Positions 37,341 to 55,817 are shown, numbered from the stretch's first letter. The stretch is DNA of 64,000 nt from a virus (IMGVR_UViG_3300023371_000083); one strand, 5' to 3'. The notes: a model not told the origin generated them from the letters alone. A program made the numbers and translations.

Positions 37341-38063
37341 TTATTTCTTTTTATCTAAAATAGGTGTACCACCTTTATTAGAAATATTGTAACCGAATAT
37401 TGCACCAATGTCTCTGGTTTTAATATATGTATAACCATCTTTATTAATCATTTCGACAGTATACTCTTCGCCATCAACAATAATATTTTCTCTTACAATC
37501 ACTTCATCGTCCTCCTTATATTTTTCAGGAATTTCAATTTCCCAGTAATATTTTTGCTGTTTTATGAAGCGATCCCAAGGCATTTTAGAACAAATTTCTT
37601 TTTTATTATAAGGATCGTTAATAAGAACATTGTCACCATCCATTGCATAACAAAGAATATAATGTCCAGAAGATGTAAAATCGCCTTTTCCAGCAACTGC
37701 AATAATCCAATTGCCATTCTCTAACGATTTTCTAACTTCTTTGTGAACAGATGCGTTTGGTTTATTATAACAGTTAGCACTGTTCATCATTCTACATTTT
37801 ATTCCATACTCAGCCATCTGTGGTTTGAAATAAGCGTAGTATGTACCTTGTTTTAATGCTTTATATCCATGTGATTTAGACCATTCAGCAGTATCGATAG
37901 GTGTTACTGTTTTGCCGGTTATTGAAGAAATAACCATAGCAGAACAAGTAATCCCACATCCTTCTGCTTTAATGGTTGTCTGTTCTCCTTTGGTAGAGTA
38001 ATCATGGTTTGCCCATTTTGGATCTGTCTGATAATACATCACAGGTCTGCCTAATTTATTCAT
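37341..38063 (-). CDS. endolysin: C39-like/NlpC-type cysteine peptidase domain plus C-terminal cell-wall-binding repeat domain
   Basis: YQTDPKWANHDY...GCGITCSAMV...GHYIL peptidase signature. Start at MNKLGR follows RBS GGAGGTG. Sits last in the late operon. Confidence 0.6.
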   Translation of the reverse strand: MNKLGRPVMYYQTDPKWANHDYSTKGEQTTIKAEGCGITCSAMVISSITGKTVTPIDTAEWSKSHGYKALKQGTYYAYFKPQMAEYGIKCRMMNSANCYNKPNASVHKEVRKSLENGNWIIAVAGKGDFTSSGHYILCYAMDGDNVLINDPYNKKEICSKMPWDRFIKQQKYYWEIEIPEKYKEDDEVIVRENIIVDGEEYTVEMINKDGYTYIKTRDIGAIFGYNISNKGGTPILDKKK

Positions 38064-38101: not shown

Positions 38102-38428
38102 TTAACCCTGTTCAATAATGTCTGTTTTTAACTCGGCATCTGTATTAGAAATATCAATACGAAGTTCTGTGACAGCACGTTTAATATAAGCTTTAACTTC
38201 TTTTTCATCAAAAGTGATTTTATATTTATTCAGAAATTCCACCATTGCATCCCAAACCTACTGTGCTTTATCTTCTATTTCGCCAGTGATATGTAACTCA
38301 TTCGCTGCAGAAACCAGTGTTTTTGCAACTTTTAAAATTACTGTTCCTTTCAGCATAGGAATCCAATATTTCTTACTAAAGAATACAATACAAATAATTA
38401 ATAATTCAAAAATCCATGTAATATCCAT
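38102..38428 (-). CDS. holin-like small membrane protein with in-frame TAG at 38258
   Basis: RBS AAGGAGG; N-terminal TM; 108 codons ending TAA. Immediately upstream of the endolysin. Confidence 0.45.
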
Positions 38429-38788: not shown

Positions 38789-38802
38789 GTTTCACCACCT
38801 CA

Positions 38803-39378
38803 TTCTTCAAATTCATCAACTACAGACCATGTATAAATTTCTGGCTGAACAATGTTTTGAACAAAACTATTGCCATTGACCGCAAACTATTCTTCAACCA
38901 ATCCTTCCAAAGCATCCAGCTCCATAGCTGTAATCTTTTTAGTTTTATGATGCAAACGATATGCTCTCATTATTTTATCTTTTAATTCTGCACGAATTCT
39001 TTTTTGATTGCGTTCTTCACTTTCTGCAAAACGCTGGTCTGTTTTTCTTTGATTTTCTTGCATCATCCTAGACAATTCTGTAAGCTGTGTGGCTAATTGA
39101 GTATTAGCATCAATAAGTTGTTTTTGAATTTCAAATGATTGCTCACGGTCATGTTTACGATTATCTTCATATGCACAAATTCTGTCATGATCCGATAACA
39201 ACATATTCAGTAACTCATCTTTCCGTTTTCTCGTCTGATACCAAGAATCCCAAAGACCTTTGATATCTTTTCTGTTTGATAAAAACCACCCAATCACAAC
39301 TCCTAAAATAATCAAACTAACAAGAAGAGTAGAAGAGGGGATTCTATCTATATAATCAATTAATTCGGTAAGTGTCAT
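38803..39378 (-). CDS. membrane-anchored coiled-coil protein; ORF-track stop at 38887 is TAG with a 28-codon in-frame extension to TGA
   Basis: Direct read of the extension ...LVEE[TAG]FAVNGNSFVQNIVQPEIYTWSVVDEFEE*. Confidence 0.35.
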
Positions 39379-39443
39379 TTTCTCACCGCCTTTTCCTCCG
39401 AAAGTGTTGCAATCATATAAAGCCTCGCTTTCTACAAAATTAC

Positions 39444-40265
39444 TTATTGTTTTCTAAGCTTATCTCGAATCTTTTTTTCAGAATCATATATGTTAATATA
39501 ATGTGTGCCAAGAATTTTAGGGATACGATTTATTTGAGAAATCAGTTCTTCTAATTCAGCGATATCCAGACTACATTTATGATCTGTACCTTCCATAGTT
39601 TTGTCTAATGTAATATGTCTTTCAATAATATCTGCACCTTTAATAACAGAAATCAGAGTAGGCAGCGTATCAATTTCATGACCGCTATATCCAATTGCTA
39701 AAGTGGGGTACATGTTTTTTAATCTTGTAATAACATTTAAATCCAACTCATCGTCAGCACATGGGTAAGTACTATTACAATGTAAAATACCAAGTAAATT
39801 ATCTAAGTTATATATTGCATTTAAAACTTCTGGTTCAGTGCTCATCCCATCAGAAATAATAACAGGAATACCCCAATCATTAATGGCATGGATTAATTCC
39901 ATGTCTGTAATACATGCACTTGGAATCTTGATAAAAGGTATATCATAACTATATTGCTTCATAAATTCAACACTATTTACATCCCATACACTAACAGTCC
40001 ACTTAATACCAATTTTTTGACAAAACTGATTAATAATATCGTATTCTGTTTTACCAAATTCAATTGACTTTTTATATTCAAGATAAGTCATTTCTTCACC
40101 TTTCCAGATGCGTTTAACATTTTTTTGATGTTCAGGAACACAAAAGTCTGGATCACGCTTCTGAAACTTTACAACATCAACACCACATCGTTTTGCTTCT
40201 TGAATTAACTGTAGTGCTGTGTATAATTCTCCGTTATGATTAATTCCAATTTCTCCAATAAACAT
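39444..40265 (-). CDS. NeuB-family nonulosonic-acid (Neu5Ac/KDN-9-phosphate-type) synthase, lacking C-terminal SAF domain
   Basis: FIGEIGINHNGEL...GVDVVKFQ is the NeuB/SpsE signature. Confidence 0.65.
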   Translation of the reverse strand: MFIGEIGINHNGELYTALQLIQEAKRCGVDVVKFQKRDPDFCVPEHQKNVKRIWKGEEMTYLEYKKSIEFGKTEYDIINQFCQKIGIKWTVSVWDVNSVEFMKQYSYDIPFIKIPSACITDMELIHAINDWGIPVIISDGMSTEPEVLNAIYNLDNLLGILHCNSTYPCADDELDLNVITRLKNMYPTLAIGYSGHEIDTLPTLISVIKGADIIERHITLDKTMEGTDHKCSLDIAELEELISQINRIPKILGTHYINIYDSEKKIRDKLRKQ

Positions 40266-40267
40266 AT

Positions 40268-40915
40268 TTAAAACTCCTCTTTAATCCTTACAATATCGTC
40301 TAGTTCAATTGTAGAACTTTCAATAATGACTAAATCTGTAATGGCTTTTACTTGATGAATTGTGCCAGCCGGAATTCTGATAGTGTCACCAATATTTATA
40401 CGAAACTCTTTTCCGTCTACTTTGGCAATCCCAACACCTTCAACAACATGCCATGTCTCATGTTTTTTAACATGATATTGTAGAGATATATTTAATCCTG
40501 CATCAATATGCAATCTTTTCATTGCATAGTTTTTAGTGATGTCCAGTAAATACTCTTTACCCCAACGCTTGTTGATTACAGTTAAACTTTCGGCATCATC
40601 TTTAGATATCAAATAATTTGCATTACAACCCTTATCATCTATGTAAACATCTGCAGCGGGTTTGCCAAATCTCAGTTCATGCTATTTTACACCCCAATCA
40701 GATAATTGTTGCGTTGTAAGATCGAACCAATCAATTCCAGTTTCTGTGCCACGAGCAGTATAATAAACCACTTTATTTCCGTTATCATACAAAGTGTTTG
40801 CCATTTGTATCATATCCATATATGGTTTTGCGTCCGCATAATTTTCTTCTTGACTACAGATAGTTCCATCAATATCAAAAATGTACTTTAGAGGTTTCGT
40901 ATTTGAATTTTGCAT
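40268..40915 (-). CDS. HAD-IIIA phosphatase (KdsC/nonulosonate-9-P phosphatase-like) fused to a C-terminal cupin domain; in-frame TAG at 40682
   Basis: FDIDGTI (motif I) ... YYTAR ... [TAG]HELRFGKPAADVYIDDK (motifs III/IV) span the TAG, followed by a small cupin beta-barrel. RBS AAGGAGG before M19. Confidence 0.6.
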
Positions 40916-41543
40916 ATTCGTAATCCTCCTTTGTATCAATATCGATGGTTTGTTCTTCGGGAATTTCAATCAGTGCCAAATCGTCTTTCAGCATATATCC
41001 ATCTAATTTAAATAATTCTTTATTAAAAATATGGAAGCAATGTGCGGCTTGATATAATGGATCAATTTCTTTTGTGGTTAATTTTTGATAATCAATATCC
41101 GTTTTAACATTGATATCTTTATCCCAAAGCCAGTTTTGAAATCTTTTAACGCTTGTGCCATATTCTTTTTTGCTCGCTAAGAATTGGCCGATTGATGAAA
41201 TAATAGTTTGTGGTGTTAGAAAAATGAGGCATGGATTTAGAAACATTAAGTATTTTTCTGGTACGCCAAGAATGTCTTTAAAAATAAATCGTAATGGAGT
41301 TTCTGCTTCTGCTGTAGCAGGGTGACGAATAATAATTTGTACATTTGGATATTTTTTAGCAATATCAATTAACTCTTTGTCACAAACCAAGACATATGTA
41401 TTTAGACCATAATAACTTTTAATATAATCCAGTTTCTTACAACAGATTTCAAACATACAAGTATCACCAATTGGTAAAGTCTGTTTGTTTGGTAATCTCT
41501 GACTACTCAATCTTGCTGGCACAAAAATTCCTACATGTTTCAA
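40875..41543 (-). CDS. CMP-sugar synthetase (acylneuraminate/KDO cytidylyltransferase family)
   Basis: N-terminal PARLSSQRLPNKQ matches the NeuA/KdsB signature. Confidence 0.6.
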   Translation of the reverse strand: MKHVGIFVPARLSSQRLPNKQTLPIGDTCMFEICCKKLDYIKSYYGLNTYVLVCDKELIDIAKKYPNVQIIIRHPATAEAETPLRFIFKDILGVPEKYLMFLNPCLIFLTPQTIISSIGQFLASKKEYGTSVKRFQNWLWDKDINVKTDIDYQKLTTKEIDPLYQAAHCFHIFNKELFKLDGYMLKDDLALIEIPEEQTIDIDTKEDYEYAKFKYETSKVHF

Positions 41544-42358
41544 TATAAAATACCTCCTTTTTCTCGTGTGTATCTCCCGCCACTATTATTGCAATAAAAA
41601 CACGGCATATCAGATGTAAACTCTGCAGAAGTTACACTTTTTACAAAATCTAAATATTTTTTAGATGATAGCATTTCGGATAATTTGCTTTCTTTTAAAT
41701 CACCTAAAATATATTTTTTTTGATTTTCACAATCGTTTCTCACATTACAGCATGGGCTAACTGTCCCATCATAATTAATTCCAATAAAATAAATAGGCTC
41801 ATAACACGGAGCCTCTCTTTTTATCTTAGAATATTCTGTTAAATTACCTCCACGATCAGAAATATTTGCTGTTTCTAACCATGAGTAATAATAGAGAATT
41901 GTTTTCTCATTGTATCTACCTACAAAATAATGGTCATATTCAATGATATCTGAAACATTCCATTTTTGTAATTGTTGCAAAACAAAATCTCTGCCTTTAT
42001 AATCGTAATCCATAATAGTTAATTCATCGACTAACATTGTTTGAAGAATTTGCTCATTAATATAATCGCCATTCGTGTTTGACACAATTGTTGTATCAGG
42101 AAAATAATGTTTTATTAATTGCATTGCATCACGCAATTCTTCGTGATTTGAAAATGGCTCATTATAACGTGAAAATGAAAATTTTCCTTCATATCCATTA
42201 ACTTTTAATTCTTGGAGGAGAGTGGTAAACACATTATAATTAAGCCATTCAATTTTACTTTTGCGGTCTATATAACTATTTGGACACCAGTTGCATTTGC
42301 GATTGCAATAAGAAAATAATTCTATTTCCACCAATCTAAGTTTTGAAATAATATCCAT
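41540..42358 (-). CDS. radical SAM protein (CxxxCxxC: CNRKCNWC) with C-terminal Cys-rich (SPASM-like) region
   Basis: Direct motif read. The true start MDIISK follows the upstream TAA by 1 nt. Confidence 0.6.
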   Translation of the reverse strand: MDIISKLRLVEIELFSYCNRKCNWCPNSYIDRKSKIEWLNYNVFTTLLQELKVNGYEGKFSFSRYNEPFSNHEELRDAMQLIKHYFPDTTIVSNTNGDYINEQILQTMLVDELTIMDYDYKGRDFVLQQLQKWNVSDIIEYDHYFVGRYNEKTILYYYSWLETANISDRGGNLTEYSKIKREAPCYEPIYFIGINYDGTVSPCCNVRNDCENQKKYILGDLKESKLSEMLSSKKYLDFVKSVTSAEFTSDMPCFYCNNSGGRYTREKGGILY

Positions 42359-42359
42359 T

Positions 42360-43055
42360 TTATTCAAATCCTTTTATCCATTGATTAAATGCTGTTTCAT
42401 CGTTAATATATTTACTAGGTGTAACATCTTGATAATTATAAAAATTTTCAGATAATTGACGTTGATAATTCATGGTTGCATTTATCAATTCACCTACATA
42501 CTAAGTTGTATATTGTATAGTATATTTATCTACTAACAAACACCCTATATTTTTAGGCGGGATATAATTCACTACAGAATCAAGATATAAATAGCGATAT
42601 GATAATGGCGAAGATAATTTTAAAGATTGATAATAATCCATAAGATTCTATACACAGTCATTAGATATGATACATAAAACTTTATAGTCAGGAGATAATT
42701 CGCCATCATCCATTAAAAACCTTAAAGCAGCAACACGATGTCTACCTTCATACACATAAAAACATCCTTTATTTTCTATAGGGTAAACACAAAGAGGGAA
42801 GTACATTCCTTTAGATAGTATCTCTTCACCAAAAGCTTTTTGCTTTTCTTTATATTTTTTTATAAACGGATTATCAATATTTTGGCTCCATATATCTTTG
42901 TCATTGTCAAGAGGGTCTGGAAATAAATATTGGATACTTATAAACTTGAAATCTAATATATTGCTGCGTATAAGGGGGCGTAAGGCATAATATATATAAT
43001 CCGAATGATATATTTTAGAAAATTGCTCTACAGAACAATTAATTCTAGTCAACAA
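42360..43055 (-). CDS. ParB/sulfiredoxin-like nuclease-domain protein; 135-aa ORF-track part ends in TAG (42648) and continues in frame through a second TAG (42501) to TAA at 42360
   Basis: YEGRHRVAALR ParB motif. The extension has no RBS of its own and ends exactly at the next gene's start. Confidence 0.45.
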
Positions 43056-43069
43056 AATATCATCTCCTA

Positions 43070-43225
43070 TTATACTATTTTATTACCATTAGAGTCATAC
43101 CCTAACGCCGTTAAAAGATGTAGTACATCTAATAAAAACTCATCAGGCACTAATTTCACTTCAGTATTATTTTTATCACAAGTTCTCAGTCCTGCTTTTA
43201 CTAATCTAAAATATAATTCTGCCAT
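43070..43225 (-). CDS. small protein (51 aa), TAATG-coupled to upstream gene
   Basis: Direct read; RBS GGAGGT. Confidence 0.3.
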   Translation of the reverse strand: MAELYFRLVKAGLRTCDKNNTEVKLVPDEFLLDVLHLLTALGYDSNGNKIV

Positions 43226-43557
43226 TATTCATTACCTCCAGACTTATTTATAAATGCTTCATAAATAGTAGCTTGAGCTTCCATAATAATTAAATTGTCT
43301 GCTTTTTGAGACTCATATTGTTCTGCTATAGCCTCCATGATAACTAAAATGTTTGAGGGTTCTTGAAGTAAAGATTCAATACTAGATAATTTATCTAATA
43401 CAGTATTATCTTCGCTCTTTAATCCAATATCTATAAATTCACCTTCTACATATTTTTTATGAAGAACATCAAGTCCTGTTTCTACTACATTCTCGTGGAA
43501 TCCAGGATCACTAGCTATAAGAACACAGATATCATTTTCATCTAATATAGCATACAT
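43225..43557 (-). CDS. hypothetical acidic protein (tail-fiber chaperone candidate)
   Basis: ORF track; sits downstream of a tail fiber gene. Confidence 0.35.
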   Translation of the reverse strand: MYAILDENDICVLIASDPGFHENVVETGLDVLHKKYVEGEFIDIGLKSEDNTVLDKLSSIESLLQEPSNILVIMEAIAEQYESQKADNLIIMEAQATIYEAFINKSGGNE

Positions 43558-43604
43558 AATTCATGATACCTCCTTTAATAATATATACGATAAGAACTAT
43601 TACT

Positions 43605-44474
43605 CTATAGTTTCACAATATAAGGTATACCATCCACAGTTCTAATACATCCTTGACTAACTAAATAATTATAAAGATAGTAGTCATTCTGTGTCCATAG
43701 TTCAGTTCTATCTAATCTAGGAGCTGGATTTAATTCTGCAGCATCTCCGTAACCATAAGACTTCAAAGAATTTGCTATATATAACTCTGTAGTTACAGTT
43801 CTTTTGAAACCCATAATTCTGCAACGAACATTCTGTATATCGAAGTCAGCTCCACTCGATGGCGTACCATAAGTGTTTACTATCATCGCAAGCTTGAAAG
43901 TTTGACCCGCATAACTGTTACCAAGCCCATAATTAGTATATATTTTATCATATGTTTTTGAAGTACCGGCGGCTATATTACTCAAACTTTCCAATGAAAA
44001 CATAGGGGAAAAATTCCCAGCACTATCTACTGTACCAGCATGAAATCTGAGAACTCCAGGGTTACTTCCTACATGAGTGTACTTACAGTCAACTCTTATT
44101 CCGCAAGTATCTGCAAGTATTTGAATGTCACCCAATACGACATATCCAGTATCTTGATTACATCTTGTGGCGGTAGATAAAAAATTAAATGTCTGACTTG
44201 CAGTTTTCACCAAATAATCATCAGCTCTCTTTAGTGGAGCAACATTTGCAGATATATTATTAATTAAAGTGTTTGCAGCCTCTACTTTAGTTTTTACAGT
44301 TGCCAAATCATTTTTAACACTAGATATATCATTTTTAACTCCAGATACATCAGTTCTCACATTAGACACATCAGTTTTAACTCCTGATACATTTGTGTTA
44401 ACTTCTTGTAATGTAGTTTGTTTCGCCATATCCATACTAGGATCTAAATCAAACTCATTTATTTTAGAAGACAT
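43605..44474 (-). CDS. tail fiber-like protein with N-terminal heptad (T-D-V-S-x-V-K/R) repeats
   Basis: Six or more heptads VSGVKTDVSNVRTDVSGVKNDISSVKNDLATVKTKV, then a beta-rich C-terminal domain. Confidence 0.5.
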   Translation of the reverse strand: MSSKINEFDLDPSMDMAKQTTLQEVNTNVSGVKTDVSNVRTDVSGVKNDISSVKNDLATVKTKVEAANTLINNISANVAPLKRADDYLVKTASQTFNFLSTATRCNQDTGYVVLGDIQILADTCGIRVDCKYTHVGSNPGVLRFHAGTVDSAGNFSPMFSLESLSNIAAGTSKTYDKIYTNYGLGNSYAGQTFKLAMIVNTYGTPSSGADFDIQNVRCRIMGFKRTVTTELYIANSLKSYGYGDAAELNPAPRLDRTELWTQNDYYLYNYLVSQGCIRTVDGIPYIVKL

Positions 44475-44544
44475 TTTTCATTCCTCCTTTTTAAAATAAA
44501 AGAGGGTAGTTAACCCTCATGAAATTTTATTGTGTTTAGTTAAA

Positions 44545-44697
44545 TCACTCAGCGTAATCTTCGCCAGTGATTTCTTTGTATTCTTTTTTTGTCAGAGAAT
44601 TCTTTTCGCCATTTTCAACTCTGATTACAAACTCATCTTTTGTTTTTACTCCTGCTTCATACAGGCGTTTCATACTCTCAATGATTTTAGTATTCAT
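44545..44697 (-). CDS. XkdX-like small phage protein (50 aa)
   Basis: KRLYEAGVKTKDEFVIRVENGEKNSLTKKEYKEITGEDY resembles the PBSX XkdX family. Confidence 0.5.
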   Translation of the reverse strand: MNTKIIESMKRLYEAGVKTKDEFVIRVENGEKNSLTKKEYKEITGEDYAE

Positions 44698-44882
44698 TAC
44701 AGAACACCTTCTTCCATTAACATTGCTGTATATTCATCAATTGCAGCATTTGCGATTTCTTCGTTTGTCTTTGACACCATAGCCTCGATACGATCTAACT
44801 GAGAAAGCTCAATAACTATTTCTTGTTTTACATCCACCCATTCTCCATTTTCATACTTTTTACCAAGTGGATTGAAATTCAC
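44697..44882 (-). CDS. hypothetical protein (XkdW-position)
   Basis: ORF track. Confidence 0.35.
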   Translation of the reverse strand: MNFNPLGKKYENGEWVDVKQEIVIELSQLDRIEAMVSKTNEEIANAAIDEYTAMLMEEGVL

Positions 44883-45100
44883 ATCAACGCAGAAAGTGCA
44901 CAGGTAGTTGTTGTGCTGTCGGAAGTAAGTGTTGTGATAATCCGCTGGACGGATTTAATGCAGGTTGCTGTAACTCCTACATTAAGAGTATTATTTAAAT
45001 TATTGACCTTTCCTAAAATTTCTTCAGATGTACTCTGCATAGCAACTCCATCAAAAACAGAATCATCAAGAGATCCAGCCATAATTTTTGAAGAACCCAT
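44879..45100 (-). CDS. hypothetical Ser/Thr-rich protein
   Basis: RBS AAAGGAG. Confidence 0.35.
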   Translation of the reverse strand: MGSSKIMAGSLDDSVFDGVAMQSTSEEILGKVNNLNNTLNVGVTATCIKSVQRIITTLTSDSTTTTCALSALM

Positions 45101-45185
45101 ATCAATTCTCCTTTCTTAATATAAAAAAGAGGGATTGATATTAATCAACCACCTCTAAAATATTATAAATGTTCATTTATTGTAA

Positions 45186-45287
45186 TTATTTATCCAGTTC
45201 GCTTTGAACTGTTTCTCTCCACTTTGCAGGCACATCATTAATGGTTTTAAGACCTTTTTTAATTAAATTAACATATAGTTTTACCAT
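45186..45287 (-). CDS. XkdX-like small protein (33 aa), TAATG-coupled
   Basis: MVKLYVNLIKKGLKTINDVPAKWRETVQSEL; RBS AGGAGGTG. Confidence 0.4.
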   Translation of the reverse strand: MVKLYVNLIKKGLKTINDVPAKWRETVQSELDK

Positions 45288-45706
45288 TATTCTGCACCTC
45301 CTAAAATAATTTCTGCTAATTCAGCAACAGCTAACTGTGTGTCAACAGACTCCTGTGCGATACTGGCAAGTTTTGTTTCAGAATATGTTCTCTGTGCCAT
45401 AGAAACAAAAATTCTTTTTTCAACAACAGCTTCTGTTTTCTCTGTAGCTTTTTGGATTTCTACTTCTTTTTTTACTAACTCAGCACGAATTGTATAACCT
45501 GTATGAATTGCTTTACTACCATCATCGCCAATAATAACAATAGATCCACAATTATCTTCTGTAAATACTGAATCAAGTTCATCCATACTAAAACTGTCAT
45601 TAAAAATAAAAGTTAATGTATCACGATTAATACCTTGTATATATTTTAATTCACCTGTCACTAAGATAGGTGTTAATTCTACTGCATTTGTTAATACAAT
45701 TTTCAT
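45287..45706 (-). CDS. hypothetical structural protein
   Basis: ORF track. Confidence 0.4.
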   Translation of the reverse strand: MKIVLTNAVELTPILVTGELKYIQGINRDTLTFIFNDSFSMDELDSVFTEDNCGSIVIIGDDGSKAIHTGYTIRAELVKKEVEIQKATEKTEAVVEKRIFVSMAQRTYSETKLASIAQESVDTQLAVAELAEIILGGAE

Positions 45707-45725
45707 GTTTGTTTACCTCCTTTTA

Positions 45726-46952
45726 TTAACCTAAGAATTTAATGATAACTGCACCAGGTTGTCCATTTGCACCATGACTTGAACCAGAAGCATTACCAGA
45801 ACCGCCATTGCCACCTGTACCATAAGAACCAATAGAACAGCCACCAGATTGTCCAGATGCTAAATTTCCGTATGATGTACCTACAGCACTACCTCTATTG
45901 AGACGCGTACCTACAAACTGAGCACCTGTGCCACCCTTACCACCTGCAACGGAGTATAAATTACCAAAAGATGTAGTTCCTCCTTGTTCGCCATTATAGC
46001 CACTTATATAAGTCGCAGATGAAACTTGTACATCTTTTTTCATACCTCTTACCCCTGCGGCGCCTATAGTAATTGTATATGATGCACCTTTTGATAAAGT
46101 TGTAGTATATAAAGCACCAGAACCACCACCAGCACCACCATTTGCGCCTGCATATGTGGATTTATCAGAAGTTACTCTAATACCACCAGCACCGCCTCCA
46201 CCACCACCATGTAATTCGATGGAGTACTGACCATCATCTGGTACAGTGAATGTGCCATTGGAAGTAAAAGTCCATGTATACCCAACAGGGGTGTCCGCAG
46301 ATGAGAAAAACTTCCTTGCTACATTATCTACACCAACATGACTAACTTTTATTTTTCTAGAAACATTGTTTATACCTGTCTATTTTTTTTTAACTTTTCT
46401 AGACACACCAGTTGATGTATGTACAGTGATTGTTGTGCTATTTAAAAAATATGGTATATTAGCATCACACCATTCCTTTGTTGGTTCATTCCCAGAACCG
46501 AAACAAGCAGTTAAATCAATCAACATTGGCTCTTTTCTATAAGTAACTGCAGAAGTATTTACTACGAAGTTTCTAAACACCCATGTTCCACTCACATCTG
46601 TAAATGCTTTTGTGTTTGATGTCATTTCCCAATTGTCGGTTTTCTAATGATATGCCCATACTGACAGACAATTTGCGTCAGAAGCCCAGTATTCAAATCT
46701 ACCATCGCTAAATGTTGAGTTTACTGGTGCTTTAACCATACATCGAATGTAATAAATATGGTTAACAACAGGTGCATTTAACATAACAGTGAAATGAGAG
46801 TCGCCACTAGCAACCGGAAATACAAACTCTTCATATGCATTCACAGATGGTAAAGTCGCACCACTTTTAGTCCAAGCAGAAGGTTGGGGAAGTAAATTGG
46901 TGAGTCCAATTTGAATCTCTGATGTACTACTAACATACATTCCTTTAGCCAT
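45726..46952 (-). CDS. glycine-rich tail fiber/structural protein (about 408 aa) with in-frame TAGs at 46380 and 46644
   Basis: ORFs 46644..46952, 46380..46625 and 45726..46043 are all in one frame, joined by TAGs. C-terminal GGGGGAGG / GTGGNGGSGNASGSS runs. RBS AAGGCGGTGAG. Confidence 0.5.
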
Positions 46953-46964
46953 GTTCTCACCGCC

Positions 46965-48302
46965 TTATTCGTACACCAGATGGATACAACCGTTGGCAAG
47001 GGCAGAGCCTGCACCGATATCTGTTGTGCCTTTGGTGATGTTGTGTTCACCGTAGATGTTGTAACTTTTTGCACTTCCATCAATAACATCATATAAAAAC
47101 ATAGAATTTTCTAACTAACCAGAAGCGTGATTGGTCAGAACCAAAGAACGTCTGTTATTATTATCGAATTTTACATCATATGCAACGGCATAAGTCTGTC
47201 CATTGTAACTACCGAACAAACCTAAACCATCAGATACAAATAAATCCCCGCCTCTCAGCGTTCCGCCTTCGGTTGTAAAGATTTCTTTCCAACCTGTCCA
47301 TGTAATATTACCATTTGCTGTGTAGTGTTCAGCGAACCATCTTCTGCTAGTGTTTGCCGCTTCTAATGTTAAAGATGTTCTGCTATCCATAGACTTATAA
47401 ATAATACAAGTTGCTGTTGTTGTGGGATATTGACTCGCATTATTGGAAGATGTAACATGAAACATTAACATTGAATTGTTCGGTAAAGACGCCATAATAC
47501 CATCAATTGTTTCTTCACCTACAGTAATACCAATCTGCTCAAGGGATGTGTATGTTTTTAAATTTGAATCCATCACTCTATCTAATGGCAAACTATCTTT
47601 TCTAATACTGCGACCAGACATATACTCTTCTGTTTCATTAGTTTCAATTTGTTTAAACACTTCCATTGTAATTGTTGTTCCAATAGAAACACCTTCAGTT
47701 AAAACAACTTTCATACCAGAAACCACAAAGTCAGAATTTTTATGTAATACCAGTTGACCTTGATATACTTTTAATACATCAATTGCATCATCAAATGTAT
47801 CAAAGGGAACAATAAATTCTCTTTGTCCATCTTCTACTGCAACTAAAGTATCAATCATATATACCATTTTGCCATTAATGGGAATTTTATTAATTTCATT
47901 ATCAACATACTCTTTGGTAGTTACAGTTTCTGCTAATCTATCTAATGGCATTGTGCCAACGCCAATATTAACACCAGATAATGCTGATTCTTCATCTGCA
48001 CTAACTACGGCTTTAAACACAATGATATCAATTGTTCTGCCCGCAGGAACACCTTCAAGCAAAATAACTTTTGTACCATCGATAATCTAATCATCTACAG
48101 CAGATAATTTCATACGACCTGAAAAAACCATAACTGTGTCTTTTGAGTAGTCAAATGTCTGCATTGGAATTATAAATTCTGTTTGACCATTGAATTCTGC
48201 GGTGTGTCGAAAATCGTATTTTACTAAGTTACCACTGGTAGCAAGAATTTGTTTTTTAATTTTTTGAATCTCAACGAGATTCTTAAAAGCATCAATACTC
48301 AC
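46965..48302 (-). CDS. tail fiber-like protein with tandem about 60-aa repeats and in-frame TAGs at 47115 and 48087
   Basis: The repeat ...GQLVLHKNSDFVVSGMKVVLTEG aligns with ...GRMKLSAVDD[TAG]IIDGTKVILLEG across the TAG. RBS AAAGGAGGT. Confidence 0.5.
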
Positions 48303-48334
48303 ATTAACTTACCTCCTTTATAAATAAAAAAGAC

Positions 48335-49558
48335 TCAAATAATCATTTCTGAGCCATACTCAAAGTTTTGGTTATTAAAACGTGTTTCAGTATCTTTTCT
48401 CTTGTATAAAACATAAATACCACTTTCATCATATACAGTAAACTCAGATGTGATCACGCCATTAATGTGAGAATTGTCAGTTAAAACATATTTAGCAACT
48501 ACAATAGATTCATCGGAGGCTAAATGTGCTTGCAAAGTATATACAGGTTCAATATCAGTAAATACAACAACCACATCTTCTCTTTCAAAATAATGTTGAT
48601 AAATCCATTGTTGAACACTCTTGCCAGTAGCATCTTTTACATAAGCAGCTCTTGTTTCTGGGTACATGGGAGTGTATTCGCCATCACTGTTTTTTGTTTT
48701 CATTAAAATTCTACCATCTTCTTGTAGGTGTAACCATAAGCCGCCTTCTTCTAAGTTTGACATAGGGTTTTCGCCATAAGAAACTTGTAGTAAAATTTTC
48801 ATTTTAACCCAATATGTAGATCCATCAATAGGGCGAGTATTAATATTGGGCTGCAAACAATACCACATAAAACCATCACAGGAAACCATATGATATTGTT
48901 CGTATTCAATATTATTTACCCATTCACCTCTAGGGGATAAGCCTAAACCAGTGTCACCAGTATCACCTTTGTCACCTTTATCGCCTTTTAATGCGGCAAG
49001 CTGTTCAGGTGTAAAGTCTTCATATCTAAAAGGTTCACCTTTATCGCCTTTATCACCTTTGTCACCTTTATCGCCTTTCATGGAGATTTGAAGATATTTG
49101 TCTGGTGTTTCAATAGGTGTTTCTCCGGCAACAATACCATCACCATATACTAAAAAGTATTGTCTGATTCCATCTACAGGATATCTCACAACATCAAATT
49201 TATTTAATAAATCATCACCATTAGCAGTAGAGGACATTGTAGGAGTCCAGTCGCCTTTCAGATTACCAATTCTGAAAATTTTGTCTTGGATATTATCATA
49301 AAAATATCTTTCTACAGCTACGATTGAGTGATACATTGTCATTAGTTTATCTGCATTAATAATGCATTCCATTAAACTGGGGTTTGCATTTAGCAGTTCA
49401 ATTGCTGAAGCTGTTTGCCCACCAGCAATTAATGAATTATACTGAGCAATCAGATTTACTTCAGATGCAGAGGGATCTCTCCAAGCAACATTTTTACTGA
49501 CTTGCTCTGGAAATTGCGTATGCGTTAAATCAGGATAAGTTACGCTCAATTCCGTCAA
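48335..49558 (-). CDS. collagen-like repeat (GDKGDKGDKGDKGE, Gly-X-Y) tail fiber protein
   Basis: Two blocks of G-D-K triplets. Start TTG/TTG after RBS AAAGGAG. Confidence 0.55.
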   Translation of the reverse strand: MTELSVTYPDLTHTQFPEQVSKNVAWRDPSASEVNLIAQYNSLIAGGQTASAIELLNANPSLMECIINADKLMTMYHSIVAVERYFYDNIQDKIFRIGNLKGDWTPTMSSTANGDDLLNKFDVVRYPVDGIRQYFLVYGDGIVAGETPIETPDKYLQISMKGDKGDKGDKGDKGEPFRYEDFTPEQLAALKGDKGDKGDTGDTGLGLSPRGEWVNNIEYEQYHMVSCDGFMWYCLQPNINTRPIDGSTYWVKMKILLQVSYGENPMSNLEEGGLWLHLQEDGRILMKTKNSDGEYTPMYPETRAAYVKDATGKSVQQWIYQHYFEREDVVVVFTDIEPVYTLQAHLASDESIVVAKYVLTDNSHINGVITSEFTVYDESGIYVLYKRKDTETRFNNQNFEYGSEMII

Positions 49559-49560
49559 CT

Positions 49561-49597
49561 CCTTTATATAAAAATACCCAGCAGTTTTTTCTGCTGG
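49561..49597 (-). terminator. intra-operon rho-independent terminator (CCCAGCAG-A6-CTGCTGGG + T-run) after the Tal/RBP gene
   Basis: Direct read on the minus strand. Confidence 0.45.
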
Positions 49598-49609
49598 GAT
49601 GTATTAATA

Positions 49610-51500
49610 TTAAATAGTCGCAAATTTACCAGTGCCATTATTATAATAATATCGTTGTTCAACACGATCATATAAACAAGCAATACCACGATAATCAATC
49701 ATTGGTAAATAATCTCTAATTAAAATGTCATTATCATATATTTTACAAGAATATAGTCTGCCAACAAATCCATGACCATCACCACCATCAGGTTGATTGT
49801 CTCTAAACAATCGTAATTCACATGTTGCATCAAATGGGATGTATTGATGTTCTCCGATAACAATATTGTCAAAACTAATTTGATTTTTATTAGCATCCAC
49901 AATATGCCGCCCAATCATATTATATTGGAATGTGATATCTGATTGTTCGCCATAAGATGATAGCATTGAATGTGGTGCTATATTTACATTTTGAGAATAT
50001 ATACAGAACGCTTGTCTGCATTCATTATTTCGTGATGAAAATAATGTATAATAGCCAATAGCGTCTTGTTGTAAAATTTCATAGTTAAATACAACTCGAG
50101 TATTTTCGTCTGGTACAAATCCAGTATTGATATATTGATTACCATCACACGTTAAATAATTTACTGGAATCGAATCAGATTGGTTTGAATAAAAACTTCC
50201 TGTGCCTTGATTATAATAATACTGTTTTGTTACACAATCATATAAACAAACAATTCCATTTCCATCTTGAGCAGGAATATAATCTCTTACAAGGGTACTA
50301 TTATGGTCATAAATTGCCATATTGTATAATTTTGCTGGTAAAAACTCACCAGCACGACCATTATTATTTAGTGCAAAAATATAAAGTGGATTTGCAGTTC
50401 TTACGCCAGTATCATTAGTGCCAGTTTGACCAGAACATATTATATTATTATTGATAATTAATGTAATATTATTTGCAAATGTTTGTAGTGCAATACAATA
50501 TTTCGTATCAATAGTTTCGCCATTAGATGGTATATTTAAATATCCGCCATCGCCAAGTCCAAATTGATATAAATAGTTATACTGATTGTATTGATAAGGA
50601 AATCCCCAAAAGAACTGTTGTCCAAATTGCTCTGCATCTCTTGCACCAACAATCATACCTTGATATAGGCTAGGGTATTCAATATTTAACCTTGCCATAT
50701 ACCCATTTGGAACGGAAAGGTTAGTATTAATATATTGTGTTCCAGTTGAACCAATATATTTTAATGATTGCATACCAATTGGCGCTGCAACAAACTTTCC
50801 AGATCCTTGGTTATAGTAATATTTTTGTTCAACACGGTCATACACACAAGCAACATCATTTTCATCTAATGCTGGAATGAAATCACGAATTAAGACATTT
50901 TTATTATATAGTTTACAACCAAAAAATCTGATTTTTGAAAACTCGTTAACAGAACCATTATCATTGTCTGCAAAAATAACAATATTGTGTGGGCAAGTAA
51001 ATTGAGTTGCTGTGCTGGTAAAAGCAACAGTATCATTAAAATACACATTATTGTTATCTAAATTTAATGCAACATTATATCGTGTATTAACACCTGTATA
51101 ACATGCTGCAGCTGTAGGTTCTAGTTTGTTTGAACCACGGCAACAATAATATTTGCCATCATTACTAAATCCGACATACAATGCATTTTCATTATGTACA
51201 ACTCTAGAACCAAGAACCATATTATATTTGCTAATACATTCAATTGGTGTGAAATCAATGTTGTATGTAATATTTTCACTTGGTTTAACGCCAGTATCAA
51301 TCTATTGTTGACCAGTTGATTCGATAAATGCAATTTGTCTGACTTTTGCATCTTGGTATACAAATTGTCCGTTGCCTTTATTATAATGAAATTTTCTATT
51401 TACCTTGTCATATAAACATGGAATATTATTTATATCTAACACTGGAATAAAATCACGAACTAAAATATCATTATCATAAATTTGACAACCAAATAATCTC
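49610..51500 (-). repeat. four diverged tandem DNA/protein repeats (about 450-600 nt each) inside the Tal/RBP gene
   Basis: Nucleotide blocks near 49610-49680, 50180-50250, 50795-50860 and 51360-51425 are about 70% identical (...attataataatactgtt...catataaacaa...). Confidence 0.5.
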
Positions 51501-53449
51501 ATAGTAGAGAACAAACTAGCAGTACCATTCAAAACTTCTGCAAATAAAATTAGTGGTGCTACGCCATCAAATGTAACATATTCATGTGTAATTTTCTTAT
51601 CGTTGAATAAAACTACATTTTTGTTGTGGTCTACAATATGTCGATTATGTGGAACAGTATCAATAAAAATACCGGTATCATTATAAAAATTACTACGAAA
51701 TTGACCATTTGGATTTCTCCATAAGGCGAACTCATTTGTATGTGGAGATGAAGTACGAGATGAATAAACAGCACCCCAAGAACTAGGATCAACCGTATAT
51801 TGAAAATCTATTACAACTCTTGTATTAGAATTTGGAGTATACTCTGTATCAATATATTGACTGCCAGTAGACTCGATAAATGGTATCTCTTCATAAATAC
51901 CAATAATTTCATTTGTACTTAAACTATAATAAGGATAAAATTCTTCCATAGTAACATTCATTGTGCCATTTGGATGATCAGAAGAAATATTTTTAATAAT
52001 CCAATCTTTAATTTCGCCAGATTCACTATATTTAAATCTCACTTTTTCATTTCCTTGTAACCAAGGGATATACACCATATCTAAAGTAACTGTACAACCA
52101 ATACGAGATGATAAATATGTTTCATGTTCAGCTCTTGCGACACAATCATCTACAGCTTGAATATCATCGTACTCTCCGCCCTGAAATGATTTTAATCGTT
52201 CTCCAATTTTTTCAATCGCAAAAGGGGAATCTGGTGCTATTGTATATGAAATATGATCACAATGATGTTTTTTCACATCTGCTTTTTTTTCGTCAAGAGT
52301 AGGTTTTGTATTTCTTAATTTATTAACAGCCTGAATTTGCCATTGTCCTAAAGCATACATAGAATTTCTTCTGTATCTGAAAACAAAAGTAGAATTTGCA
52401 ACAAAGAAATTTGCTTCAATTGCTTCTTCTAGGCTATTTGTAATATTATATAAACCAACCAACACTTCTTCAGATGATTCGTCTTTTTTATTCTAAATCG
52501 CAATTTTTGATCCAGCGTTTGAATTAATGAATGGCATTTTAACTGCAAATTTTGTGCTTGTAGGTAAACTACCATCATCATTTAAAGCGAGTCCTTTGAA
52601 ATGTGCGGAGTATGTGTTTAAAGTAACATCATACTCACAAATTTCTGTATGATAATCTGTATCTAAGCATTTACCCCAAACCTTACTTACATTTCTAATG
52701 TCTTTCAAAACGCCATTATCAACTTCAGAAACATATAAATTTTGCAAAATATTGTTGTCTAAAACAATAGGATCGGACTCTTCCATAGGAATTTGTTTAC
52801 AAATAAATGTACCATCGGTATCAAAATACATTTCATAAGAAGGGTAAAGGTCTCTGAGTTTTGTTAAAATTGTCCACACAGTATCTGTCGCACTAAATTC
52901 TAAATCATAAGGAACAAGTTGTGGCATGTCTGCAATATTATATCTCGTAAAAGGAGAGAAGGTTGTTAATACATAAATCATTGCATCACGTACACTAACA
53001 TTTTCCTCAGCCTTAATTACAACCTCTAAATCTTCTAAACTGCCATCAACATCACCATTTAATTTACAGACCAAATCAGAGCAATTTACTTGTAGAATTC
53101 TTGTTTGTGGATTATAAGAATAATCTGTCATAACAAAAATACCTTTGTCATACCATAAAACATCCTCGTGAAAAGGTACTTGTACACCAAAGAAAATTTT
53201 TACATATTGATCAATCCAAAGCAATCTGTCTTCTGAAATGCCAACATTTTTATTGATAACACCTAATGTCATACTCAATGTATTTCTAATATCAGAATCA
53301 ACATTAGTTGAAATACTTCCAGATATATATTCATGCTTCATCTCATAAATTGTTTGAAATTTATCATTCAATAATAAAATCTTTACATGCAATATTTTTT
53401 GCGGAAATTTTAAAGCATCAATATCAATTTGGGTAGGGTAATAAGCCAT
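49610..53449 (-). CDS. giant tail-associated protein (Tal N-domain + tandem-repeat receptor-binding region, about 1280 codons) with in-frame TAGs at 52493 and 51302
   Basis: ORFs 52493..53449, 51302..52465 and 49610..51220 share one frame and are joined by TAGs. About 150-aa modules repeat four or more times (FIESTGSQYIDT...CLYDxVxxKYYYNxGxGxF). Confidence 0.55.
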
Positions 53450-54348
53450 TAATTACCCACCTCCAAAAATTCAACAAATCCATTATAATATAGATCTTCA
53501 TTACTATTTACATCGCCAACTTCAACGAAATTTACTGTTGTATGCACTAAGTCGGGATGACCATTTGTTGCTTCATTAATAGTATCAATTGCAGATGCTA
53601 GATAGATTCGACCATCATAGAATTTAACAATTTTAGTTCTTTGATTGTCAATGAAATCTCTAAACGCTTTTCTATATCTCCATCCATTATCGACATCCCA
53701 TTGACATGTATTTCTATTTAATTCAATCATAGCACCAGTCACAGAGAATTTATCATATCTTGACTGACCATAATAATAAACATAAGGGTATTTAGAATTC
53801 ACTGGTTCAATCATTGTAGATTTAATTTGTCTAGTCAGATTATCACTAGCGAAATCCAAAATTACTTGATATGTATTTGTTTTATCTACAATAAAGCAAC
53901 CATCAAATTCTACATCAACACTAATTGTTTGATAAGAACCTTCAACGCCATTAACAATAGGGACAGCAGCATACTCATATGTTGTATTTGATGCTACAAC
54001 CACATCATTAAAGAAGAAATCAAAGTCAGCTTCTGTTTTTACAGGGAATGTGTAAAGAGTAGACCATTTATAATCATCAACTTTTCTCTTTTTAATTACC
54101 ATGTCACTAATAGAAGCGAGTGTAAAACCAACATTACCAGCTAAAATATTGTTTTGGAATTTCGCATTCATTAATGTTGTATGACCCCATGTTGGAATAT
54201 TTGTGTCTGCCGGAGCAGAAACATCTGAATCCATCTACACTTCATCAAACACGGCATTAGTAATTTCTACATATTCCGTAGATTGTGGGGAAATAGGTGT
54301 TGCGTCTAAAGATGAGGCATAACTAACAAATCCTCCTAAAAACATCAT
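53449..54348 (-). CDS. siphovirus tail family protein (Dit-like) with in-frame TAG at 54235
   Basis: MMFLGGFVSYASS... runs in frame through the TAG into MDSDVS.... The ATGATG overlaps the upstream TGA. Confidence 0.45.
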
Positions 54349-55508
54349 TCTACATCACTTCCTTCCACAATTTCTTCAATGAGTTCTTCAGGATTAGATG
54401 GTTCTGGTATATTAACATCATTATTTTCTGGAATTTCTAATGGTGTAATAACTAAATCAAATAAACCATTTACATGTCGAACATAAATATGAACCTGCTG
54501 ATCCCCAATTAAAGGGGAAATACGATTACTTACTTGTCTATATTTTAACTGCTCAGAACCAACATAATGGAATGTAGTTAACTCCGCATAATATTTTACT
54601 TCTCCAGAATCATCAAAAGTCCCATAATTCCATGTAATTATTGCTTTTACTGATTTCATATTAAATGTAATCATTTTTGTGAAGTCTGGAATATTGCTTA
54701 ACCTCATATCCCATGTGAAATTTTTAGCAGAAAAACCAGAATCCCAATATACTGTCTCTCCATTTAAAAGACTAATTTTTTCATCATCAATATAAACCAA
54801 TTCTGATTCATCAATATTAGAATCGCCTTCTACTAAAACATAATGTGCAGACAGTCTGACACTACCTTCTTCTGCAATATTATCTGCTCTAAATGCTAAG
54901 AACATGTCTGGCTTTAAATAATCACACAGTACTTCAATAAAACCAGTATCAATCTCCATACCATGAACTGTTTCGCCAGTTGCACGAAGATAAAATGTAT
55001 TATCATCCACCAAACCTGTCACTCTTGTTATCATAGAGTCGCCAGAATATTTATAACCAGAATTATAAACAACGGTTGTTTGATTTGAAGCATAAAGGGT
55101 GACAATATATTCGTTTAGCAGCTCTCCATTTTCTTGAGAGTAATGTAATTCTGCATCAATATATGAACTTCTAATAGTTAATCCGTTTGTCACATTTGAA
55201 AAAGTAAATATTGGTGTCGCAAGACACTGAACGATAATAATATTACTCAATGGACTTTCAATATTTTCGTGATCAAACACAGATACTTGAACATTATAAG
55301 TAACACCATTTTGCAAAGTATTTGCGGGGATTGTCACATATGTTGTCATCGCATCATTTTTTTGATCATATACGATTGCATTAGTCGTGTTGTTTTTTAC
55401 AATAACTCTATTTGCAAAAATCTGAGAACCGTTATATGTGAACTGCAGTATATGGTTAAGTGTTGCATCAAAAGGTACTGAGTTTAATAAAATAGGGGAG
55501 ACCGCCAT
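54345..55508 (-). CDS. tail structural protein (387 aa)
   Basis: ORF with RBS AAGGCGGTGA. Confidence 0.4.
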   Translation of the reverse strand: MAVSPILLNSVPFDATLNHILQFTYNGSQIFANRVIVKNNTTNAIVYDQKNDAMTTYVTIPANTLQNGVTYNVQVSVFDHENIESPLSNIIIVQCLATPIFTFSNVTNGLTIRSSYIDAELHYSQENGELLNEYIVTLYASNQTTVVYNSGYKYSGDSMITRVTGLVDDNTFYLRATGETVHGMEIDTGFIEVLCDYLKPDMFLAFRADNIAEEGSVRLSAHYVLVEGDSNIDESELVYIDDEKISLLNGETVYWDSGFSAKNFTWDMRLSNIPDFTKMITFNMKSVKAIITWNYGTFDDSGEVKYYAELTTFHYVGSEQLKYRQVSNRISPLIGDQQVHIYVRHVNGLFDLVITPLEIPENNDVNIPEPSNPEELIEEIVEGSDVE

Positions 55509-55541
55509 TTAATAATCACCGCCTTATCTGTTTGGATATAT

Positions 55542-55775
55542 CTATAAATCATCTGGGTTTGTTTTGCCTTGTGGAAACAATACATGTACTGTTTCATTTA
55601 TTGCAAATGTAAATCCAGATTTAATTTCGTAATTTGCATCATAAATTTGAACTTTATATTTACCATTTGGTAAAACTCCAATGATTCGACCACGTTTTGT
55701 TATATCAAAGTTAAATTTTGTTTCTTGAATAATAATATTAAACGCATCAATCACTTTTTGTGTTTCAGGAGACAT
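55542..55775 (-). CDS. small structural-region protein; ends in TAG followed by 5 codons and TAA
   Basis: RBS GGAGGTGG before MSPETQ. Confidence 0.35.
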   Translation of the reverse strand: MSPETQKVIDAFNIIIQETKFNFDITKRGRIIGVLPNGKYKVQIYDANYEIKSGFTFAINETVHVLFPQGKTNPDDL

Positions 55776-55784
55776 AATCCACCT

Positions 55785-55817
55785 CCATATAAAAAGGAGA
55801 GGGGTCAACCTCTCCTT
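55785..55817 (-). terminator. rho-independent terminator (AAGGAGAGG-loop-CCTCTCCTT + T-run)
   Basis: Direct read on the minus strand. Confidence 0.4.

Follow-up and report, generated by a model that had tools for sequence, protein, structure and literature searches.

The late region of the phage IMGVR_UViG_3300023371_000083 was analyzed in a stretch of 64,000 nucleotides (nt), hereafter called the window, with a focus on the in-frame TAG codons of its genes and on how they are read. The genes at 38803-55542 are on the minus strand, so the coordinates of a preliminary description of this DNA are the low ends of minus-strand TAG codons. Genes were called with TAA and TGA as the sole stops, and every in-frame TAG was then listed, which gave 14 TAGs in 10 minus-strand genes between 38102 and 55808. 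From the high-coordinate end, these genes are a late open reading frame (ORF) of 94 amino acids (aa) at 55524-55808, with TAG at 55544-55542 and TAA at 55526-55524; a 299-aa protein of the baseplate module (PHROG 27355; 53449-54348), whose TAG at 54237-54235 is residue 38 and which the standard code divides into 37 and 261 aa; a 1279-aa tail protein, a repeat tail fibre with a PHROG tail protein match (49610-53449; TAGs at 52495-52493 and 51304-51302); a 445-aa late protein (46965-48302; TAGs at 48089-48087 and 47117-47115); a 408-aa glycine-rich tail-fibre protein (45726-46952; TAGs at 46646-46644 and 46382-46380); another 299-aa late protein (43575-44474; TAG at 43607-43605, 9 codons ahead of TAA); a 231-aa protein (42360-43055; TAGs at 42650-42648 and 42503-42501), whose TAA lies 1 nt before the radical-SAM/SPASM start at 42358; a 215-aa HAD phosphatase–cupin fusion (40268-40915; TAG at 40684-40682), with the cupin/MannoseP_isomer domains downstream of TAG; a 192-aa protein (38800-39378; TAG at 38889-38887); and the 108-aa holin (38102-38428; TAG at 38260-38258, residue 57). 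Reading TAG as sense fuses adjacent ORFs of the same frame; in the tail fibre, 49610-51301, 51302-52492, and 52493-53452 become one frame of 1281 codons.

The preliminary description had claimed that each TAG of the late region is followed by an in-frame extension, closed by TAA or TGA exactly where the ribosome-binding site or start of the next gene lies. A systematic scan, in which the distance from each TAG to the next stop was compared with the next start, bore this out for all 14 TAGs of the 10 genes. The extensions are 5-960 codons long, and the closing TAA or TGA ranges from a 1-nt overlap with the next start to 60 nt ahead of it. The four examples originally given were reproduced: 28 codons follow the TAG at 38889-38887 up to a TGA 11 nt ahead of the next start, 95 codons including one more TAG follow that at 42650-42648 up to the TAA before the radical-SAM ATG, 49 codons follow that at 47117-47115 up to a TAA with the next start 12 nt on, and 5 codons follow that at 55544-55542 up to a TAA with the next ATG 15 nt on. 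In their two other frames, these genes contain TAA or TGA at 0.077 per codon, so that an open run averages 13 codons. On this basis, the joint probability of the ten terminal extensions (5-563 codons), if the downstream sequence were non-coding, is ~1e-47. Two extensions, of 5 and 9 codons, are too short for their length alone to separate sense from stop. Every TAG frame at 38803-55542 continues to TAA or TGA, in agreement with the earlier view that TAG is not a functional terminator there. The pattern is, however, not restricted to the late region, to which it had been ascribed, because the plus-strand genes at 21814-31393 are also recoded. The gene strand, the identity of the amino acid (Tyr), these recoded middle genes, and the avoidance of TAG by the early genes, integrase, and lysin are additions to the earlier account.

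To place these genes, a circular genome of 129,192 bp was reconstructed by locating the window proteins in public assemblies and closing overlapping contigs outward. The window corresponds to positions 38831-102830 of this circle, i.e., about half. The genome has two arms, which diverge from a ~2-kb non-coding region and converge at ~34.9 kb of the window; one is the early/replication arm and the other is the late arm. The plus strand carries the long ORFs up to ~34.7 kb, and the minus strand carries those from 35.1 kb (35115-64000); the GC and AT skews change sign near 35 kb (G+C of the window, 33%). The late arm carries, in order, an 828-aa YonO-type RNA polymerase, ClpP, a tRNA cluster, terminase, head, tail, and sugar genes, holin, lysin, and integrase. 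Plus-strand TAGs of the middle block (21814-31393) are at 21916, 21928, 22146, 22416, 23101, 23292, 23451 (ThyX), 24068, 24547, 25149, 25368, 26025 (NrdD), 27957, 28611, 30160, and 31250.

The use of TAG differs among the modules. Counted over ORFs of at least 80 codons, the early arm (74 genes; 13,883 codons) has 6 TAGs and 812 TAT/TAC codons, the middle block (12 genes; 2,805 codons) has 13 and 141, and the late arm (50 genes; 15,635 codons) has 41 and 802, respectively. The TAG share of Tyr-like codons is thus 0.7% in the early arm, 8.4% in the middle block, and 4.9% in the late arm (early versus middle plus late, Fisher p=3e-9). All six early-arm TAGs are at gene ends backed by a near TAA or TGA or in doubtful ORFs, and the early-arm part of the window has TAG only at 12073, 12085, and 12113, where it coincides with a gene end and a gene start and is backed by TAA. 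The early-arm part of the window (1-21813, plus strand), which encodes a MrpR-like recombinase, RtcB, PTH2, NadR/PnuC, DnaB, primase, and Pol III alpha, has no internal TAG. The serine recombinase (35115-36698) and the Peptidase_C39-type lysin (37341-38063), both on the minus strand, are TAG-free, as are the tape-measure genes in the window; the holin has one TAG and the YonO-like polymerase has seven.

Several lines of evidence indicate that TAG is almost certainly a sense codon in the middle and late genes. In public gene calls made with the standard code, NrdD is present as two fragments, each matching Pfam NRDD, ThyX lacks its N terminus, the HAD–cupin gene is split into 77 and 114 aa, and the tail fibre appears as three adjacent pieces in the same frame (318, 387, and 536 aa). 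Positions 6-302 of the PHROG 27355 profile align with residues 6-297 of the 299-aa baseplate-module protein across its TAG (E=2.8e-83), and this protein is encoded by a single uninterrupted gene in cultured Enterocloster phages. The Pfam family Phage_holin_6_1 covers holin residues 6-89, also across the TAG, with a weak match (E=5e-4; score of 20.8 bits, below the cut-off of 24.9). Homology likewise extends over the TAGs of the YonO homologue and of the HAD–cupin fusion. Essential genes contain up to seven TAGs, which leaky read-through could not sustain. Among the 189 ORFs of the reconstructed genome, 121 end with TAA and 68 with TGA, a count in which stops were defined as TAA and TGA only and which cannot by itself reveal a TAG terminator. 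Possible TAG terminators were found in three early-arm genes, each backed by TAA or TGA within 1-12 codons. Two TAG-rich late-arm genes have an identical sequence in an ENA and a Logan contig, and the tRNA(CUA) described below is identical in a JGI and an ENA contig. This identity across the independent assemblies compared argues against sequencing error. Each gene looked up is carried by 23-24 contigs of the collection, several of which are ~129 kb. In the Logan gene calls, the late genes seemed to occur in versions without TAG, and this difference was traced to the use of another code on the same DNA.

The residue inserted at TAG is very probably Tyr, as judged from protein alignments. The present phage and 21 related IMG/VR loci were translated with TAG as X and compared by BLASTP. 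Opposite the phage's own TAGs in structural genes, Y was found 85 times, another TAG 15 times, and S 12 times, and any other residue occurred at most four times. Among 80 loci around NrdD, the residue at TAG 26025 is Y in 78 and F in two, and that at TAG 25368 is Y in 47, N in 17, F in seven, and H in four. Two or more relatives could be aligned at 23 sites; ~12 of these show Y in the majority or in a tie, and ~16 an aromatic residue or His. Five sites are highly conserved, four with Y (17/17, 15/15, 78/80, and 13/16) and one with T (8/9), and the remaining sites are variable. An apparent Tyr site at 27338 was dropped, as it is an out-of-frame TAG within the end of NrdD. In the HAD domain, both solved homologues (9iqw and 1xpj) have Tyr at the site of TAG 40684. 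The tail fibre supplies an internal comparison at TAG 51304: ESTGQQ#IDTG (#, TAG) aligns with ESTGSQYIDTE, STGTQYINTN, and CDGNQYINTG, giving Y in three paralogous copies. In the homologues P0030-P0034, the five tail-fibre proteins that a concatenated 1550-aa query retrieved, the bracketed position of the motif STGxQ[Y]IDT is Y in 13, W in two, A in one, and F in one of 17 copies. TAG 54237 is opposite Y in a fecal phage scaffold and opposite H in phage PMBT24, and TAG 48089 is opposite F in a second copy of the segment within the same protein (DD#IIDGTKVILLEG versus SDFVVSGMKVVLTEG). Additional Y matches at TAG sites were found in relatives carried by metagenome-assembled genomes (MAGs). The nearest relatives by NrdD (79-86% identity; eight genes in common) have ordinary Tyr codons at the TAG sites of the present phage, which suggests that the recoding arose recently.

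The candidate decoder of TAG is a tRNA with a CUA anticodon at L069:2551-2634, and it is likely that this tRNA(CUA) reads the codon. It is 84 nt long and lies outside the window at the start of the late arm, directly 3' of tRNA-Gln(UUG). It was detected as the one perfect match in a genome scan for the stem-loop pattern 5 bp - YUCUARN - 5 bp and by its orthology to L156:6811-6897. The acceptor stem GGGUUAU/AUAACCC (G1-C72), followed by A73, is the same as that of the L156 tRNA, and the 7-nt anticodon loop CUCUAAA has U33 and a purine at 37. Folded without constraints, the sequence forms a cloverleaf at minimum free energy, in which the D stem has 3 bp and the long variable arm 4 bp. In an RNAalifold analysis of tRNA(CUA), the L156 tRNA, and six tRNA-Tyr(GUA) genes, the stems of the acceptor, the anticodon arm, and the T arm were retained, with numerous double or compensatory changes, and a compensatory pair in the D stem (G13-C25 versus U13-A25 in L156) was read by eye from the two sequences. 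The L156 tRNA belongs to the IMG/VR contig 3300045988_185107 (loci L017 and L156), the sole other phage found with TAG at Tyr sites. This 87-nt tRNA is canonical, including its T-loop (UUCGAUU), and combines the CUA anticodon with a long variable arm and A73; its anticodon arm resembles that of the relatives' tRNA-Tyr(GUA); the part of the tRNA cluster seen in L017/L156 has no tRNA-Tyr(GUA). A CUA-tRNA pattern search of viral contigs recovered only this known relative. A scan of metagenome contigs, among which the present phage was absent, gave only relatives at 54-60% identity, with ~20 tRNAs each and no CUA anticodon. The 13 conventional tRNAs of the present phage, all at the start of the late arm, include tRNA-Tyr(GUA) and none with CUA. 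In the window and its flanks, ARAGORN and Rfam found no tRNA, an outcome that by itself pointed to the absence of a suppressor. A split gene was considered and rejected, as no second, canonical T-arm is present downstream, and so was a mis-registered anticodon in a tRNA-Tyr(GUA) or tRNA-Leu(UAG) call, as the sequence has a normal GUA loop. A sigma-70 promoter scan of the tRNA region gave no excess over shuffled controls, and no theta or hepatitis delta virus-like ribozyme was detected beside the tRNAs.

Some other features of the tRNA region were observed. The tRNA-Tyr(GUA) of the phage (L069:7267-7350, outside the window) has an atypical C at position 8; ARAGORN calls it, whereas it escapes the Rfam tRNA model even at E<=1. 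Directly downstream of tRNA(CUA), an ORF resembling a GIY-YIG-type homing endonuclease (by eye; L069:2700-3000) holds an in-frame TAG, and in the relative L156 the CUA tRNA is directly followed by tRNA-Ser. Two related phages have a 72-nt UUA (ochre-suppressor-like) tRNA near NrdD (L087:15076-15147 and L088:9263-9334). In distant gut-metagenome relatives of 120-230 kb (L030-L062), arrays of 16-22 tRNAs directly follow a YonJ-like phosphoesterase gene, unlike in the present phage, where the 13 tRNAs are upstream of this gene.

Several observations weigh against Tyr and against tRNA(CUA) as its carrier. Some TAG sites are at moderately conserved non-aromatic residues (T 8/9, E 9/14, and S 9/15). 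Within 38803-55542, Tyr is directly supported at three or four sites, and most others are without close homologues. In distant NrdD homologues, including a PDB alignment, the TAG sites fall at variable positions and give no residue signal. As for the putative suppressor tRNA, its T-loop is GGCAGUA instead of UUCRANY, with no T54-Psi55 and no A58; ARAGORN with relaxed settings and the Rfam tRNA model at E<=1 miss it because of this non-canonical loop, and permissive ARAGORN (introns, low threshold) on the reconstructed genome returned spurious intron calls only, with no CUA anticodon. Its identity to tRNA-Tyr (0.65) is only marginally above that to tRNA-Leu and tRNA-Ser (0.61-0.64), and A73 with a long variable arm is also compatible with Leu identity. 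In addition, no gene for a release factor or a synthetase was seen by which competition with the host release factor 1 (RF1) could be managed.

Glutamine is the residue that TAG would encode if the phage used ordinary code 15, as do the crAss-like, Lak, and phAss-1 phages, and TAG → Gln has been published for the phAss-1 group (PMC10607447). In other large gut phages, whose NrdD is 67-70% identical, TAG is indeed opposite a conserved Q (44/64; e.g., NTRQTDVRPA versus NTRXTDVRPA). These matches were restricted to sense frames, as some had arisen from antisense-frame alignments, and the Gln signal stayed, in more distant phages that have 3-4 genes in common with the present phage in the fetched flanks. 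The same pipeline therefore distinguishes Gln from Tyr. Opposite the TAGs of the present phage, Q is rare and is never the conserved residue, the conserved sites being Tyr. The tRNA(CUA) and its L156 orthologue (84-87 nt; 4-bp variable arm) align with the relatives' tRNA-Tyr(GUA) and are not of the kind expected for a tRNA-Gln derivative with a short variable loop, the phage's own tRNA-Gln(UUG) being 72 nt long. We consider code 15 very improbable here. Leucine, or another residue carried by a type-II suppressor, would fit A73 and the long variable arm; tRNA(CUA) matches the tRNA-Leu of these phages almost as closely as it does their tRNA-Tyr, and leucyl-tRNA synthetase ignores the anticodon. 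Because the conserved sites have predominantly Y and practically no L opposite TAG, we regard this assignment as still less credible than glutamine.

Decoding without a dedicated suppressor, in which a near-cognate tRNA such as tRNA-Tyr(GUA) reads TAG through a G34:G mismatch, perhaps with the host RF1 inhibited, would leave the CUA tRNA-like gene as a relic. The phage does possess tRNA-Tyr(GUA), and the T-loop of tRNA(CUA) looks defective; RF1-deficient Escherichia coli partly reads UAG as Tyr, and plant tRNA-Tyr(G-Psi-A) suppresses UAG. Near-cognate decoding is, however, too inefficient for an 828-aa polymerase with seven TAGs or for virion proteins. All four stems of tRNA(CUA) are preserved and show compensatory changes when set against the canonical orthologue, which argues for selection, and the independent assemblies compared agree fully in its sequence. 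This explanation is improbable. That the TAGs are true stops (in pseudogenes, split genes, or assembly errors) or pyrrolysine codons is hardly conceivable. Standard-code pipelines do call fragmented genes here, and ARAGORN labels CUA tRNAs as "tRNA-Pyl". Against true stops, the same sequence recurs in the independent assemblies compared and on the many contigs mentioned above, the fragments are always contiguous and in the same frame with single genes as homologues, and the lengths of the extensions are not expected by chance. Against pyrrolysine, no called gene of the genome has a Pfam match to pyrrolysine synthesis (pylBCD) or to pyrrolysyl-tRNA synthetase (pylS), the long variable arm is unlike that of tRNA-Pyl, and the aligned residues are Tyr, not Lys. 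The view of the preliminary description that TAG is reassigned rather than leakily read through is thus backed by homology, by genes with multiple TAGs, by the disuse of TAG as a terminator, by the CUA tRNA, and by the identical assemblies.

Here, we propose that the phage uses two codes, with TAG read as Tyr in the middle and late genes by a phage suppressor derived from tRNA-Tyr, and we consider this explanation as a whole quite likely. The early genes would be readable by the host's standard code. In the middle genes (nucleotide metabolism) and the late genes (RNA polymerase, packaging, head, tail, sugar modification, and holin), TAG would be taken as Tyr, with tRNA(CUA) as the most likely decoder, presumably charged by the host tyrosyl-tRNA synthetase as is E. 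coli supF. Its charging with Tyr is suggested by the protein alignments, not by the tRNA sequence. Ribosomes would stop at TAG until the suppressor has built up. The first 30 codons hold 15 of 54 TAGs against 50 of 585 TAT/TAC codons of the same genes (p=1e-4), an enrichment that depends on the start-codon choices made; window TAGs near gene starts include 23292, 24547, 25149, 27957, 28611, 30160, and 31250. TAGs near gene starts would be the pattern expected of early "gatekeeper" stops. Little would be wasted by early termination, as many TAGs are in the first 30 codons. The YonO-like polymerase, the holin, and the virion genes may thereby be delayed, and the switch of code would act as a translational timer atop transcriptional control, with the late RNA polymerase itself gated. 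The analysis shows that TAG is in frame and is read through, that Tyr fits best as its residue, that a CUA tRNA built like tRNA-Tyr is present, and that TAG is used by module and preferentially near gene starts; the timing role, the charging with Tyr by the host enzyme, and the function of a tRNA with an aberrant T-loop are what we infer. With the N-terminal TAGs and the heavily recoded late RNA polymerase, the idea that a switch of code times development would be open to direct test.

A more far-reaching proposal, which we regard as unlikely, is that the phage represents a second, independent amber reassignment in phages that operates through a phage-private decoding channel and a timer made of N-terminal TAGs and YonO. 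With a T-loop that lacks T-Psi-C and A58, tRNA(CUA) may need, or be protected by, a phage RNA toolkit, which would comprise RtcB, a Thg1-like enzyme, RlaP, PTH2, Ro60 with two Y-RNA-like genes, and an RF2-recruiting ArfA-like peptide. RtcB, PTH2, the Thg1-like enzyme, and RlaP are encoded at window 6171-7385 and 5708-6136 and at L063:5548-6417 and 3188-4216. Outside the window, a Ro60/TROVE-like gene is followed by two candidate YrlA-type Y RNAs (L069:4419-6050, 6320-6424, and 6468-6594), which score 30-34 bits with Rfam RF02553, below the gathering score of 69. This RNA-repair and tRNA toolkit is unusually complete for a phage. Just after the tRNA cluster, also outside the window, L069:8575-8709 encodes a 44-aa peptide, MFKMDKDELQEYLTYRKRGFVVKNKKGKGSYKRKEKHKNKRYEE, with a Pfam ArfA score of 28.1 bits against a cut-off of 25.5. 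It has the motif KNKKGKGSY.RK.KH, which we take to be common to E. coli ArfA as well. A putative RF2-recruiting ribosome-rescue factor of this type is unexpected in a TAG-recoded Firmicutes phage.

Other features of the late region in the window were noted. At 57505-57515, 2 nt (TG) are absent that are present in three other contigs of the same phage. As a result, a tape-measure-like gene of 1839 aa appears as two ORFs, 57488-61360 and 55816-57579; the difference is a strain variant or an assembly error. A segment of ~1 kb (61361-62399) with two small ORFs on the opposite strand separates the PhageMin_Tail tape-measure gene (end at 62400) from a second tape-measure-like gene (start near 61335). 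Between the tail fibres and the lysis genes, a minus-strand sugar cluster (39444-42358) encodes NeuB, the HAD–cupin fusion, CTP_transf_3 (CMP-transferase-like), and a radical-SAM/SPASM protein. This nonulosonic-acid-type cluster may have a role in the glycosylation of the virion or host surface.

Judged from its gene content, the phage is one of the SPbeta-like phages of Firmicutes, as it has a YonO-type RNA polymerase and YonB/YonG/YonJ-type virion genes. The 828-aa YonO-like protein has a DHDGD motif and shows 25% identity to the yonO genes of SPbeta-group phages (tblastn) and 40% to homologues in phage c-st and Enterocloster phages, and the Pfam families YonB, YonG_N, and YonJ_CC are matched in the genome. 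A megablast search with 17 kb of the window gave no match among GenBank phages. The MAG labels of the two nearest genome matches, Christensenella and Lachnospiraceae, are weak host evidence, and the host is probably a member of the gut Clostridia. SPbeta, Clostridium phage c-st, and the Enterocloster phages PMBT24 and CB457P1 resemble the present phage in genome size and two-arm architecture, and they have in common with it the YonO-type late RNA polymerase (DxDGD), structural gene families, and a serine recombinase. They differ in that their protein identities to the present phage are just 25-40%, and the PMBT24 homologue of the 299-aa baseplate-module protein is one unbroken gene, unlike the TAG-containing gene here. 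Published work on the Enterocloster phage OQ326496 found no stop-codon recoding.

The closest functional parallels are the code-15 gut phages, i.e., the crAss-like, Lak, "gemstone" (e.g., Agate), and phAss-1/Phassvirus clades. Like the present one, they are low-GC gut phages, here of ~130 kb, in which TAG is dropped as a terminator and appears within the coding frames of structural genes, lysis genes, and part of the DNA-metabolism genes but is missing from the early genes and integrase, and in which a CUA suppressor tRNA is encoded by the phage with no dedicated synthetase; a role in timing or lysis control has been proposed for them, too. They differ in the amino acid, Gln there and Tyr here, and in the tRNA, a tRNA-Gln derivative there and a putative type-II tRNA-Tyr derivative with a non-canonical T-loop here. 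Stop-codon recoding as such is well established in phages. In the preprint by Borges et al., TAG → Gln and TGA → Trp were the only reassignments observed in phages whose code differs from that of the host. This pattern has been explained by the glutaminyl- and tryptophanyl-tRNA synthetases being intrinsically easy to hijack. A phage with TAG → Tyr would imply that tyrosyl-tRNA synthetase is exploitable as well and that one codon was captured for different amino acids in different gut phages. No description of such a phage was found in the open-access papers and preprints searched, and a prior description elsewhere is possible; what appears to be new is TAG meaning tyrosine in a phage, probably read by a structurally aberrant phage tRNA that standard tools miss. 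Among 180 phage suppressor tRNA genes associated with theta ribozymes, 1.1% were scored as Tyr isotype ("code 29") by tRNAscan-SE (PMC10879173); this was the sole published hint of Tyr amber suppressors in phages among the papers searched. These are predictions only, with no protein alignments and no genome described, and they differ from tRNA(CUA), which has no detected adjacent ribozyme.

There are practical consequences. Annotation with table 15 would put Gln at >50 Tyr positions in this genome and relatives, while standard-code pipelines fragment the genes, as is visible in the public calls, and tRNA finders miss the suppressor. The suppressor with its aberrant T-loop is a natural candidate for a bacterial amber-suppressor part. 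E. coli supF is the tyrT amber suppressor, a tRNA-Tyr with a G34-to-C change that inserts Tyr at UAG. As far as can be judged from sequence and fold, tRNA(CUA) resembles it in its bacterial-type tRNA-Tyr frame (long variable arm, A73, and G1-C72) and CUA anticodon. The supF tRNA is a laboratory or spontaneous partial suppressor, whereas the one proposed here would be fixed in a viral system with >50 TAG sense codons, and its T-loop is aberrant instead of canonical. NCBI code 29, the nuclear code of Mesodinium (TAA and TAG → Tyr), also assigns TAG to Tyr. That code is organism-wide and uses TAA as sense, whereas the reassignment proposed here would be viral, partial, and switchable, and TAA is still the main terminator (121 of the 189 ORFs).

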